From: Eledone cirrhosa
Lineage: Eukaryota
NCBI GenBank assembly: GCA_964016885.1
Contig: OZ024756.1
Coordinates: forward strand, 16,740,001-16,804,000
Length of the DNA: 64,000 nucleotides
Reading direction: 5' to 3'
Shown piece by piece: positions 7,001 through 58,000 of the stretch. The notes beneath the pieces are model-generated. The model saw only the letters and a list, made by a program, of their open reading frames with translations. It did not search any database and was not told where the DNA came from. Made by a program: the position numbers and the translations under genes. How positions within the stretch are numbered: position 1 is the first letter of the stretch; each line of letters opens with the position of its first letter.

Positions 7001-10000
7001 TCATGCTAGTACCTGACTGCTCCTGGAAGGATAAAAGTGAAGTTGACCTCAGTGAGATTTGAACACCCAATGTAGAGAGCTGTAACTAAATACTGTAAGA
7101 TGTATTGTTCCATACTCTAATAACTGTGCCAGTCTACTAGCCATATAAACACTTGTGTAAATAGAGAACAGCTTTTCTTTCAAACATATTGATATTAAAG
7201 ACATCAATCTCTTCTAGTTTAACCCTTTAACATTTAAACTGGCCGTATCCAGCCAGAATTCTCTTACCTCTTTTTGTTCAAACCAGCTGCTCATACTTAT
7301 GTTATGGTATTGTTCTCAAAATAAATAATATCAAAATCTTGTAGAGTCGATATTATTTGACATAAAGCCTTTAATGCAAAAATACAATAGTAAATACAAA
7401 GTTTTGTCATATTTCCTTACCAATCTTTCATGTTTGGTTTTGAACAATAATGTTATTAGAAGCAATGGTTCCTAAACCCATTGGTCAGTTAATGTTTCAA
7501 GACTTTCACAGACTCTTTATCAGTCTTTTATGTTTAGTTTTAAACAATAATTGTTTCTACTTTTGGCACAAGGCCAGCAATTACCCAGTGCATTACTGGT
7601 ACTTTATTTTATCGACCCTGTAAGGATGAAAGGCAAAGTTAACCTCGGCGGGATTTGAACTCAGAATGGCAAGGGCCGTAACTATGCGTCAAAGCATGGC
7701 GTCCAACCCTCTACCGATACTGCCAATCCACCGCCTGTTTTAAACAATAATGTTATCAGAACAATGGTTCCTAGACCCATTGGTCAGTTAATGTTTCAAG
7801 ACTTTCACAGACTCCTTATCAGAATAAAATAATATTGTCTGTAACAATAGTCCCACAAACTACATACCATTACAAGTTGATAAGGTTGAGAGTTAGCACA
7901 GGATTTACATATAGGCTAAGTGGCCTTGTCCTCTTCTAAGTGTATATCAAAATATAGCTATGAAGCACATCATTTTTGACAAAATTTACAGAAGGGAACA
8001 ACAGTTAAATAAGCTACTCAATACCTACATATTTTATACATAAATGACTTCTATAAGAGATGATTTCAAATGAATAAAACAGTTTGAGTCCTGTAGAAGT
8101 CATTTCTATATGATATATATCATCATCATAATTTTTATGTCTGCTTTTCCATGCTTCTACATACATACAAATATACATATATATACTCTACTAATTTGTA
8201 TTGAGTACTAATATAAATTTGGCCTCTTACTCTACTTATAAGAAATACCAAGATATATATGTATGTATACATATATATTTGTATACATACAAATATATAT
8301 GTATACATACAAATATACATATATAGTTGTATACATACATATATATCTTGGTATTTCTTATAAGTAGAGTAAGAGGCCAAATTTATATTAGTACTCAATA
8401 CAAATTAGTAGAGTATATATATAACTAATAGAGAAAAGAAAAAACATTTTTTCCTTAACCCTTTAGCATTTAAACCATATCTGGCCAGAATTCTCTCACC
8501 TCTTTCTGTTCAAACTGGCTATAACTGGTTGCTCATGTTAAGGTATTGTTTTCAAAATAATATAATACCAAAATCTCTTAGATTCAATATTATGTGAGAT
8601 AATTATGTGAAATAAAGTGTTTACCATGAAAATATAATAGTATATATAGAATAATGTAAATGCTAAGGGGTTAATATGTGGGACATCTTAATGAATAAGA
8701 CTGTTAAAATGGTCTAGATCTGATATGGAAATAAACATAAACTTTCCAAAAGTGGGGAAATGCAGACCAAATTAACTAATACGAGAGAATTTTGCTTACA
8801 TCACATCTTTAACAGCAGTTTCTGGAATTAAGAAACAATATTAATTATCTTAATAAATTAACCCTTTAGCATTTACATTTTTCTATATTTACATTTATAT
8901 TTTCACAGTAAAGGCTTTATTTCACATAATTATCTTACATAATATCGAATCTAATATATATTTATTTTGAGAACAATACCTTAATGTCAGTATAAGTGGC
9001 CAGTTCTAGCTGGTTTGAACAGAAAGAGGTGAGAGACTGGCCGGATATGGCCAGTTTAAATGCTAAAGGATTAAGACAACGAACATTTGAAGAAAATCCA
9101 GTCATCAGAGGGATTCTTTGAAAGTAGAAAATTATATTCATCTATTAGTATTAAAACAAGGTGATCCAGACCTTCTCTTTATTTGGAAATATATATATAT
9201 ATATATATGAAATCCGGGAATTTGTATATCTGGTGATATACAGTATGTTTATAAATAAACATTTTGAAAGCCTTCAGCTATGAATTTGAAAACTGATGGT
9301 GTAACGCCATCTAGTGTGTTCCAGCAGAAGCCAAGGACCGTCATTAGCTTCTGCTGCAACACACTAGATGGCACTATGCCATCAGTTTTCAAATTCATAA
9401 CTGAAGGCTTTCAAAATACTTATTTATAAACATACCGTATATCGCCAGCTATACAAATTCACCTATTTCATATACAAAGCTATGTTAGAGTTAATGCCCT
9501 TATATATATATATATATATATATATATATATATATATATATAAGAGAGAGAGAGAGAGAGAGAGTTATAAGAATAAGTACCTTTATCAGACACCGTACTT
9601 CCTGTTTGAGATTTATCAGCAGAGGCTGAAGAAGGACTGTCTATATTCTCTTCCCCTGTGGAACTGTCTAAAGTCTGCAATGTGAGAGAGAATTACATGT
9701 AGAATGGAAAGGTATAGAATTTCTCAACAGCCACAAAAGCAATAAAATCAATTGACTCAATTAATCTATAATATCATTACAAGGAAATTGATCAGATGAT
9801 TTTCCTTCTATAGATTTGTCTGTCTGTGTTTTTAAATCAACCCCATAGAACCTATTATAATAGGGATTTTTTTTTTGTTTTCAGCACCTAAAAAGCACTG
9901 GTTGTCCCTGTATCCCCAAATTTATATTTGAATAACTTCTCAGGATGTAAAAGATAGGTGCTCCCAAAGCTGGTTATAGGCCTTGAGAAGATGTAAAGTG

Positions 10001-55000: not shown

Positions 55001-58000
55001 TATATATGTATATATATATGTATATATATATATATACATATGTATATATATATGTATACATATGTATATATATATGTATACATATGTATATATATATGTA
55101 TATATATATGTATATATATATATGTATACATATGTATATGTATATGTATATATATATATATATGTGTATATATGTGTATACATATGTATATATATATGTA
55201 TATATATATATATATATATATGAAGGCACATGGCTTAGTGGTTAGAGCATTGGCCTTGTAATCGAAAGGTTGTGAGTTCAATTCTCAGACTGGGTGATGC
55301 GTTGTTTCCTTGAGCAAGACACTTTATTTCACATTGCTCCAGTTTACTCAGCTGTAGAAATGAGATGATAGGGACTGGGGCCATATCATTCCACTGCAAA
55401 GTGGTCGTGGAGGTGCCACGGCAAAAAAGCACCCAGCACTCACTGTAAATGAGGTTGGTGTTAGGAAGGGCATCCAGCTGTAGAAATCAAGCCAGAATCA
55501 GTTCCCGTCCCACCCTTGCAAGCAGGGAAAAAGCGGACATAAAATGAAATGATGATGATGATGATATATATATATATATATATATATATATATATATAAC
55601 AAAATGTCATATAAGTTATACAGAGAGCTGAAAAAGCTCCATTAACTGAAATAATCACTGAAATTTGAAGAGAAAATCTCACCTTTAGTGTATTTAGCAT
55701 CTACAAACAATAAGCAAGAAATTAGGAGATATTATTGGAGTTCTGTGTGTGTGTGTGTGTGTGTGCATAGTACATTATCTAATGTAGAGTATATATATGT
55801 ATATATATATATATATATATATCCGTGTGTGTGTGACACAGTGAATCTAGGAGTACATTATATCTATCTATCTATCTCTCTTGGAATCAGGATGGAGAGA
55901 GAGGTGCTGTACCCCAGCAAGTTTTATGAAAGGTGGGTGAAAGTGGCGAGAATGGCCCAAGTGAATGGGCCTTCTCTCTATATCAGCCTGTAGATTGAGG
56001 AAAAGGAGGAGGAGAGGAAAGGAGTACAAACTCTTCGTACTCCTGGAGATGAGGGTTGCACATTTTTTCGGGGGTATGTGTTACCCATATGAACTGTCTC
56101 CCCCTATTGGGGAAAATTGACTAATTTTTAAATTGCATTTGTGATAATATTTTACATGTTTTTATTGTATGTAAACTTCCCCTTCTTTTGTGCCCCTGTG
56201 GCTAATAAAGAAACCTATCTATCTCTCTTGGAATCCCTGTTGATGAAATGAATCCTCTGTTCGATCATGGAATACCACGAGCGTGCCTGTTACGTAAGCT
56301 GGATAACTGATTTTGGATTCATAGAAACACTTTAAATGTATATCGTTTGATTTGTCCAGGTGTATCTTTTTAACCTGTTAGTTTTTTCGTTACTTTGGTA
56401 TTGTGTGGTTAGGTTTTGCCTACCATAATGTTCAATTTGTCAAGCTATTTAAACGTATGTTATTTCTCTATTATTACTTATTGAGTGCTTTGCTAACTCA
56501 TTCATATTGTAGGTCGACATTGCTTGCCCACAGGCTAAGCTTCGATTTTACTAAGCTTCCACTTGTATATATATGGAGCGAATACCCTCCATCAGGCATC
56601 TACCATACTCTGAGCGCCTTGCTTCCCTGGGCATGGATACATTGAAGCTCCGATGCCTGGCAACTGACTTGGTAAACACCCACAAAATTGTTAACCATCT
56701 TGCCAACAACAACCCTGAGTACCTTTTTGATTTCCATGTGTCTAACACACGTGGGCATGCCCACAAAGTCAGAAAACAGCACAGTTCCCATGACTTTCGG
56801 AAACATTTTTTCACGCTCAGAGTTGCTGTCGAGACACTGCATTCTTTAAGGCCTCCATGCTTCCCGAGATCTGCCAACACTACACCTAATGTTCCCCCTC
56901 CATACACATACACACATGTATACCATGACTCATACACTATTCACTTCCCTGACATTTGTGTATTATTCTATGTACTATACATGCATCTCTGACGAGTTGT
57001 AGTGCACCTGAGCACTGTACACAATAATTTCATTATTATTATTATATCTATATATATAAAACAGAGAATGTCTGTCTGTCTCCCTAAAACTCGAGAACAA
57101 CCCAACCGATTATTTTCAAATTTTACACATGTAATACTTATGGTTGTGTGAGTGTTTTGAGCAAATATTTCAAATTTTTATGCCCTAGGGACCGCATTAG
57201 GCGAAAAACCGCATATTTTAAGCTTTAAAGGCTTTTTTTAGGCATAACGGAACAATAATCCAGCCGATTTCTTCAAAATTTGCATTACTTATGTCGTTTA
57301 AAGGGTTTTGAGCAAAAAGGATTTTCTCATTATTTCCCCAGGGACCGCATTAGGCAAAAAACCACGTTTTTGAAGCATTTTGGTTGTGTTAGGGCCTGTA
57401 ACTTGAGAAGTACCCAACCGATTTTTTTAAAACTTTGCATATGCATTACTTATGTTTCACAAATTTCCTTGACTGAAAAAGATTTCAAATTTTTGCCTGG
57501 GGACCGCATTGTTTAGCATTTTGGTTGCGTTAGGGCCTGTAACCGCAAAAGTATCCAACTAAATTCCTTCACATTTTACAAACCCTTGGTAATCTATGAC
57601 AAATTTTTTTTATAGGCACAAAATGTAGACACCATCCCCAGGCCGAGGTAGTCCGTACTTCTCTGTACTGTTTCAGAAAGGAGGGATAAACATGCTAATC
57701 TATGTTTAGAATCCCGAGCAATGCCGGGTCATTCTGCTAGTATATATATATATATATATATATATATGATGACTGCAAACTCTGCTAAGAGTATTGCAAT
57801 CGCTTGTCAGATTCAGATGTGTAACGCTTGGATATGGCTTTTCAAGCCTGCTAGCGACTTGCACTCCATCGCACATTGATGACAACTAAGGATCTCCCTG
57901 GCAGGTCTTGTATCAGGTTGCCTGTGAACTTTCACAATACTGTGGAGATCATAGTTCACTGGTTCTCTTTGAACATGGCTGAAACTGTGGCTCCTGAGAC

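Follow-up and report, generated by a model that had tools for sequence, protein, structure and literature searches.

The Penelope-like retroelements (PLEs) of the Hydra clade, which have a C-terminal endonuclease, are characterized in the inspected passages of PMC8557442 by the protein motifs RW[KR], DKT, CxCX5C, CxxC, and CxH, by a (TA)n target, by pseudo-long terminal repeats (pLTRs) in tandem and inverted copies, and by a tail at one end. That this tail is often present at only one end of PLE copies is known (PMC8557442, legend of Fig. 2, and PMC3846280, each in the part inspected). The anole element PAc, a PLE of the Poseidon clade, cuts and extends both strands, starts in vitro at two internal RNA sites that match and bound the ends of the tail, requires RNA 3' of these sites, and is predicted to be a dimer (PMC11167929, part inspected). 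The inspected parts of PMC4209133, PMC7229834, and bioRxiv 10.64898/2026.07.22.740005 describe, as non-LTR retrozymes or PLE hammerheads, short derivatives of pLTRs that are non-coding and have type I hammerheads, some of them in tandem. In the window analyzed here, 64,000 nt of Eledone cirrhosa DNA (GCA_964016885.1, contig OZ024756.1, positions 16,740,001 to 16,804,000, forward strand), a short bulged hairpin recurs that sits in the terminal repeat of PLEs sharing all these Hydra-clade features and in that of their non-coding stubs. Two such hairpins stand in tandem in the terminal repeat, copies end 5' of either one, and the hairpins are likely RNA binding sites that set the start of the reverse transcriptase (RT).

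The original prediction had listed 12 sites of an ACTC...TTGAGTRC motif in the window. All 12 were present with an offset of at most 1 nt, including two variants, the site at 56465, which starts with TCTC, and the site at 53611-53640 with TC in place of TT. Four sites had been overlooked, at 8390-8414 on the minus strand, at 53448-53495 on the plus strand in a GCTC/GAGC form, at 30968-30991, and at 31726-31752. The pattern ACTC-N5..30-TTGAGTRC gave 12 matches in the window compared to a mean of 0.21 in shuffled sequences, and none of the 100 shuffles reached 12. In the 3.0-Gb genome (G000), the sub-pattern ACTC-N8..24-TTGAGTGCT matched 30,883 times (15,679 + 15,204), but its reversed control only 769 times (376 + 393), which is a 40-fold excess. 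Eighty random 10-kb stretches contained 51 copies of the ACTC form versus 10 reversed and 19 copies of the GCTC..GAGC form versus 2. The motif loci (1.7 Mb) were sorted into 44 sequence clusters, some chance matches among them. The claim that the motif occurs across unrelated families was therefore borne out, and neither a lack of genome-wide enrichment nor an origin in one recent family agreed with the data. Chance or a single recent repeat family could explain a match such as that at 6556-6581, which lacks both an upper stem and a TA end and is probably fortuitous, but as an explanation of the motif it is refuted by the genome excess, the many dissimilar families, and the conservation of the hairpin in relatives at about 43% protein identity, so that practically no weight was left to it.

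Four coding families of the carrier elements are represented. Family H1 is young and has intact open reading frames (ORFs) of 713 aa with YRDD at 345, YIG at 597, and the invariant residues R608, H612, E667, and N680; the frames are open over 784 to 789 aa in H4 and over 910 to 960 aa in H5, which has a differing 3' flank of the hairpin, and the ORF of H2 is broken. H1 possesses RWRA and DKTGN and H4 possesses LRWRT and DKTGN, RWR being a variant of RWK. Among 55 relatives of H1, 44 matched the RWK-type motif, 54 matched DKT, and all 55 matched the CxCX5C linker, the CxxC, and the CxH motifs. CCHH is absent from the H1 endonuclease as read from its sequence, and a Pfam search with the C-terminal 322 aa of H1 gave no match. 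The assignment to the Hydra clade was made from these protein motifs, and the likeness to published consensus sequences was judged by eye. The hairpin-bearing elements insert into (TA)n and have a pLTR with tandem and inverted copies.

In the coding families, each terminal repeat contains two hairpins, 55 to 106 nt apart and just ahead of the ORF start. The second one, “hairpin 2,” is located 40 to 70 nt before the start codon; at the tandem junctions of all four families with such a junction (H1, H2, H4, and H5), it follows the tail end and precedes the ORF start. It was also present at tandem junctions of the non-coding F4/F6/F12 group; the F4 group had been taken to be without hairpin 2, and a wider search found it there with an apical insert of 70 to 80 nt. 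In a 176-nt tandem of the window, hairpin 2 is of a weaker form. The F4 group has no hammerhead and forms tandem arrays with a unit length of about 600 nt (L269:490-3000; L124, L128, and L131; L208). No coding partner was found for the small families F2, F3, and F5.

Among the clades tested, the hairpin is limited to the Hydra clade. The genome also holds elements with Neptune motifs (CX2-5CxxC linker, CCHH endonuclease), and these were considered as the coding partner and rejected because they have no hairpin of their own: none of the top 30 GIY-YIG loci, mostly of the Neptune type, had its own hairpin within 1.5 kb downstream, and the single match was a nested H1 copy. Locus L047, considered as an endonuclease C terminus directly before the motif, was the antisense 3' untranslated region of H2 at an inversion junction. 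The tails of the Neptune-type families (L051, L054, L062, and L097; L067, L087, and L161) share a different start, AACTCGTGTG, and at the junction of L087, pairing is possible between CTCGTGTG and CACACGAG, immediately beyond the tail end and before the ORF start, which is possibly a clade-specific equivalent signal. Rfam at the gathering threshold gave no match in five hairpin-bearing loci; for the window, the 150 listed of 160 matches were noise from TA-repeat microRNAs and one marginal tRNA match.

Searches outside this genome yielded 795 relatives of H1 at E <= 1e-30. A first metagenome scan with a single protein as the query gave no match; the alignment of the 55 relatives led to 77 metagenomic Hydra-type loci. 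With a fixed descriptor, the sequence upstream of the ORFs (13.8 kb) yielded 63 hairpins, the downstream sequence (42.9 kb) 34, and the ORFs themselves (128.5 kb) a single one; on the opposite strand of the same regions, the counts were 0, 2, and 0, respectively. The hairpin was carried by 56 of the 77 loci and 42 of the 60 families, with twin hairpins 55 to 92 nt apart in 36 loci. TAT or ATA was located 3 to 10 nt 5' of 65 of 80 metagenomic hairpins versus 16 of 80 on the 3' side. After 23 cross-locus rows had been set aside, 13 of the 18 same-locus rows from other organisms showed ends 0 to 8 nt before the hairpin, and the rest were three contig ends and two cases of slippage in A runs. In the published Hydra consensus sequences, the hairpin was clear by eye in Hydra-2_Amil, Hydra-2_Ajap, and Hydra-1_Ajap (two copies before the ATG), with coral and sea cucumber as the hosts, and a variant was present in Hydra-1_Crog. 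Twelve 9-mers compared to the supplement of PMC8557442 produced 10 matches, 4 in Hydra hairpins and 6 elsewhere without a hairpin context in the passages inspected; for the Naiad and Chlamys clades, this 9-mer search was a coarse test only.

In the motif, the lower stem is RCUC/GAGY, followed by a 3'-side bulge of 2 nt (UU, UC, or UA) and a variable upper stem-loop with a loop length of about 4 to 80 nt across families. Its 3' flank (VCU) is usually ACU or GCU and also CCU. In 39 genome clusters, which were anchored without a pairing requirement and included chance matches, the first pair was a Watson-Crick pair in 27 (A-T in 19, G-C in 6) versus a permutation mean of 14.8, and the best-fitting register was that with the 2-nt bulge. 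The metagenomic candidates, also anchored without pairing, numbered 122, with 85 distinct hairpins of the GCTC/GAGC form. In these, the first upper pair was kept in 83 (C-G in 52, U-A in 29) compared to a permutation mean of 62.7, and none of 5,000 permutations reached 83; the second pair was kept in 61 of 85 and the third in 52 of 76. At the first lower-stem pair, A-U in the E. cirrhosa genome takes the place of the compensatory G-C found elsewhere. The original prediction had suggested covariation of the stem as a check, and an excess of pairing was found in the genome clusters as well as in the metagenomic relatives. When whole regions were folded for minimum free energy, the first hairpin (“hairpin 1”) appeared in the structures of H1 and F3 and was missing from that of the F5 tandem; the hairpins are weak alone, and MAFFT did not bring the 5' strand of the variable hairpins into alignment.

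The ends of the copies were counted in loci that had not been chosen for the motif, 80 random ones and 85 picked by protein. References were kept only if their upstream part was common to a second copy, which left 22 of the 44 clusters, and the chimeric references F14, F37, and F40 and one F5 copy were excluded. Of 232 TA-joined ends, 103 were “short,” 114 were “long,” and 15 were located elsewhere, which placed 217 at two sites. An end was counted as short if it fell between 14 nt before hairpin 1 and 1 nt into it (observed, -12 to +1); a peak at -10 came from H1 measured from a mutated representative and is at -2 from the true stem start. Long ends are the tail ends, 3 to 7 nt before hairpin 2 wherever this hairpin is visible, and the tails are 31 to 76 nt long across families. 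Among 61 mirrored insertions, 52 combined a long with a short end, none had two long or two short ends, and one end was unclassified in 9. As a separate observation, the 5' junctions of full-length H1 copies (L271-L300) lay within 17 nt of hairpin 2 in 6 of 30 cases and near hairpin 1 in 4 of 30. This gathering is weak, as if bound hairpins stalled the RT; it is suggestive only and was not used as support.

Two explanations of these ends that do without RT positioning need to be considered. A nuclease of the host or the element may cut the RNA, or transcription may stop, just 5' of the hairpins, with the RT starting at the RNA 3' ends as in long interspersed nuclear elements (LINEs). This would account for ends 5' of each hairpin and agrees with the “3'-processing” idea of the original prediction, but it leaves the one end of each kind in nearly every mirrored insertion unexplained. 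Moreover, the anole PLE starts internally and its main product ignores added 3' RNA (PMC11167929, part inspected), so that RNA processing was judged improbable. The hairpins may also serve packaging, translation control, or a promoter, while adjacent AU-rich patches set the ends independently. The fixed place of hairpin 2 before the ORF start would fit such a role, as would the F4 group, in which hairpin 1 is conserved but does not serve as an end; AU-rich patches, however, are common in these repeats, yet nearly all ends were at the two sites, across families whose tails measure 31 to 76 nt, and this explanation was given marginally less credence still than RNA processing.

From the observed structure, twin arrangement, position before the ORF, ends, coupling of long with short ends, and clade restriction, we infer the function from sequence data only, as follows. 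A (TA)n target would be cut in both strands by the RT-GIY-YIG protein, two molecules of which would occupy hairpins 1 and 2. At each of them, one of the cut DNA ends would base-pair with the UA-rich sequence located about 5 nt 5' of the hairpin, and copying would proceed 5'-ward from each start, which means that the occupied hairpin would not be copied. The stretch between the two starts would be the known PLE tail, which contains hairpin 1, so that priming next to each hairpin would explain the tail. Joining of the two complementary DNAs (cDNAs) at their far ends would result in a mirrored insertion, and the non-coding hammerhead families may keep the hairpins for being copied in trans. The original prediction had left open RT or endonuclease recognition and 3' processing; that the hairpins are paired and that copies end 5' of them favors the positioning of RT initiation over 3' processing.

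Alternatively, the hairpins may act as DNA, being recognized by the GIY-YIG endonuclease in the cDNA or in an integration intermediate and cut on their 5' side, which would trim copies to one of the two ends. Craig et al. attribute the tail to endonuclease resolution (PMC8557442, part inspected), and the Drosophila virilis endonuclease required the tail for recognition (as cited in the inspected part of PMC11167929). On the other hand, the tail ends of the anole PLE coincide with RT starts on an RNA template in vitro (PMC11167929, part inspected), there is UA microhomology at the end site, and both hairpins are uncut in tandem DNA copies. An action as DNA is thus unlikely, although clearly less so than RNA processing.

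Several observations weigh against RT positioning by the hairpins as RNA. G-U outnumbered A-C by only 14 to 7 at upper pairs 1 to 3 of the metagenomic set, a weak bias for RNA over DNA, and by 8 to 7 when all 39 genome clusters were counted, so that the data separate the two modes of action weakly. The permutation tests on pairing ignore the relatedness of the sequences. The F4/F6/F12 group keeps both hairpins, yet had no short and 8 long ends in the unbiased loci. Among the metagenomic families, 18 of 60 were without a strict hairpin, many being short of flank but some having it, and among six published Hydra consensus sequences, the hairpin was partial in Hydra-1_Obim and absent in Hydra-1_Amil, which is incomplete at its 5' side. 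The Poseidon/Nematis-like loci L060 and L091 have no such hairpin of their own, and it is the Poseidon clade from which the anole biochemistry comes. Finally, the short and long arms often overlap, so that a single terminal repeat cannot be the template of both at the same time. The twin hairpins as RNA binding sites nevertheless remain the probable reading. Its concerted version, in which a protein dimer would clamp the two RNA hairpins and each half would prime one strand of a cut (TA)n target about 5 nt 5' of its hairpin, so that one event leads to a mirrored insertion with a short and a tailed end, is tentative and was given somewhat below even chance because the frequent overlap of the arms would call for either a pair of terminal repeats or of RNAs or a stepwise course.

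The original prediction had linked the motif to hammerheads, with the motif 3' of them on the same strand. When the hammerhead core was searched as CTGANGA..GAAA, it was found within 200 nt upstream at only 2 of the 12 cited sites (48801 and 54152). In the random stretches, a same-strand core was located upstream of 11 of 66 motifs (background, 2.3%) and downstream of 2 of 66, and the motif was downstream of 13 of 203 hammerhead cores (background, 0.7%); a (TA)n insertion end followed 30 to 89 nt downstream of 40 of the 66 motifs compared to a background of 7.6%. The link thus exists but is minor, most copies of the hairpin being without a hammerhead, and the hammerhead was rejected as the defining partner. 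What stood of the proposal is a conserved, covarying cis element at retroelement 3' ends, its partner being the PLE terminal repeat with (TA)n ends instead of the hammerhead. Several large hammerhead families contain no such hairpin. An abundant hammerhead family (window, 37216-37241; L237 and L252) has two TA ends 33 nt apart and no canonical hairpin. A hammerhead core is present in H5 and in one H2 copy, whereas the young and intact H1 has a changed core with CAGA for CUGA (L174:2600-2630; window, 53375-53400) and H4 has no canonical core by pattern search. Hammerhead cleavage may therefore be dispensable in H1 and H4. The small families F2, F3, F5, and F10 possess hammerhead core sequences, and most of their copies are single or mirrored, while in non-LTR retrozymes every tandem unit would have a type I hammerhead active in self-cleavage and circularization; the 176-nt tandem holds one core.

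In the window, the commonest copies (14383, 16164, 31726, and 47888) are ends of H4. Hairpin 1 at 14383..14409 (plus strand) has its long, tailed end at 14455 and is 85 to 89% identical to H4 locus L408. The mirrored H4 insertion at 16060..16235 consists of a short end at 16060 (minus strand), hairpin 1 at 16164-16190 (plus strand), and a long end at 16235, and a second one at 31681..31796 has a long end at 31681 (minus strand), a damaged hairpin near 31726-31752, and a short end at 31796 (plus strand). Hairpin 1 at 47888..47914 (plus strand) has a long end at 47959 and a short inverted arm upstream. The small hammerhead family F3 is represented by a mirrored insertion at 48564..48895, with a short end at 48564 (minus strand), a long end at 48895 (plus strand), and hairpin 1 at 48801..48830 (plus strand); a putative minimal type I hammerhead core, recognized by its pattern, lies at 48709..48739 on the same strand, 61 nt 5' of this hairpin. 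A mirrored H1 insertion at 53163..53530, 96 to 98% identical to L174 and with the 713-aa ORF located elsewhere, has a short end at 53163 (minus strand), a long end near 53530 (plus strand), and hairpin 1 in the compensatory GCTC/GAGC form at 53448..53495 (plus strand). The hairpin with the TC bulge at 53614..53640 (minus strand) has its long end at 53565. The 176-nt tandem belongs to family F5: hairpin 1 of unit 1 is at 53976..53997 and that of unit 2 at 54152..54173 with a long end at 54214, and between the units a hammerhead-like core lies at 54083..54106, 46 nt 5' of hairpin 1 of unit 2 (all plus strand). The candidate hairpin 2 at 54046..54062 (plus strand), about 5 nt past the F5 long-end position, is a GCAC/GTGC variant without an upper stem and weaker than the other cases.

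Of the remaining copies, 56465..56489 (plus strand) is hairpin 1 of an F4 copy (the hammerhead-less 600-nt group), with a mutation in its first base and a long end at 56565, and 30968..30991 (plus strand) is a hairpin of family F8, also mutated in the first base, with a TA end 60 nt downstream. Two convergent stubs of hairpin plus tail occupy 8185..8414, with hairpins at 8185-8209 (plus strand) and 8390-8414 (minus strand) that face a single TA-rich tract; this 230-nt region is a near-perfect foldback in which both stubs begin exactly at the hairpin. Two hairpins were not placed into a family, one with a long apical stem at 36939..36980 (minus strand) and a TA end 88 nt downstream, the other at 38043..38068 (plus strand) with a TA end 43 nt downstream. 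The copy at 35761..35784 (plus strand), right behind a TA run and without a TA end within 150 nt, is probably decayed. The window also contains a 58-bp array of 108 copies (38964-45204), a 42-bp array of 84 copies (58961-62467), a 6.7-kb TA-rich tract bearing nested insertions (12326-19014), and a further abundant short element with inverted copies and without the hairpin (20502-20860, with repeats near 5080, 6741, 7546, 32595, 48234, and 51127).

The elements thus belong to a known clade, but the signal appears to be an undescribed cis-acting RNA element. A full-text literature search, with most subscription journals and several supplements outside its scope, found no description of the twin hairpin, which together with the Rfam result agrees with the remark in the original prediction that the element was not recognized as described. 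The main text of PMC8557442 has no match to “hairpin” or “palindrom” and uses “stem” only in hammerhead descriptors; its consensus files contain the twin hairpin, with no mention of it in the passages inspected. H1 and H4 differ from the Hydra clade of that publication, as far as it was inspected, by the lack of a canonical hammerhead core. The inspected parts of the retrozyme publications (PMC4209133, PMC7229834, and bioRxiv 10.64898/2026.07.22.740005) contain no second RNA element, whereas here the hairpin and not the hammerhead is constant. The anole PAc differs by its clade, by starts in an AC-rich stem-loop inside the ORF and without strand bias in vitro, and by the absence of a defined conserved twin hairpin; this one in vitro study mapped two internal starts and no signal (PMC11167929, part inspected).

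For the choice of the start point by PLEs and for the tail at one end of mirrored insertions, the hairpin is a short, conserved, and covarying candidate signal, and young, intact elements exist for testing its role. It is also a simple annotation marker for Hydra-type elements and their non-coding dependants, whose number in this genome is in the tens of thousands or more. Among retroelements, PLEs have the RTs most closely related to telomerase, and an RNA stem that fixes an internal start would therefore bear on that lineage. If concerted twin priming were true, the pair of hairpins would be a portable signal of about 130 nt that is enough to turn any RNA into a template. It would then also be a model for the way in which telomerase-like RTs acquired internal starts on an RNA, at a position fixed by an adjacent stem. 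LINE 3' stem-loops are located 5' of the start and are copied into every insertion; a LINE-type 3' stem-loop was ruled out here because roughly half of the ends fall short of hairpin 1, and hairpin 2 appears nowhere but at tandem or 5' junctions. In hepatitis B virus, synthesis is protein-primed from the bulge of epsilon. LINE 3' ends and epsilon resemble the present element in that an RT would select its template and start point by binding to a bulged stem-loop; here, there are two hairpins, each of them 3' of a start site.

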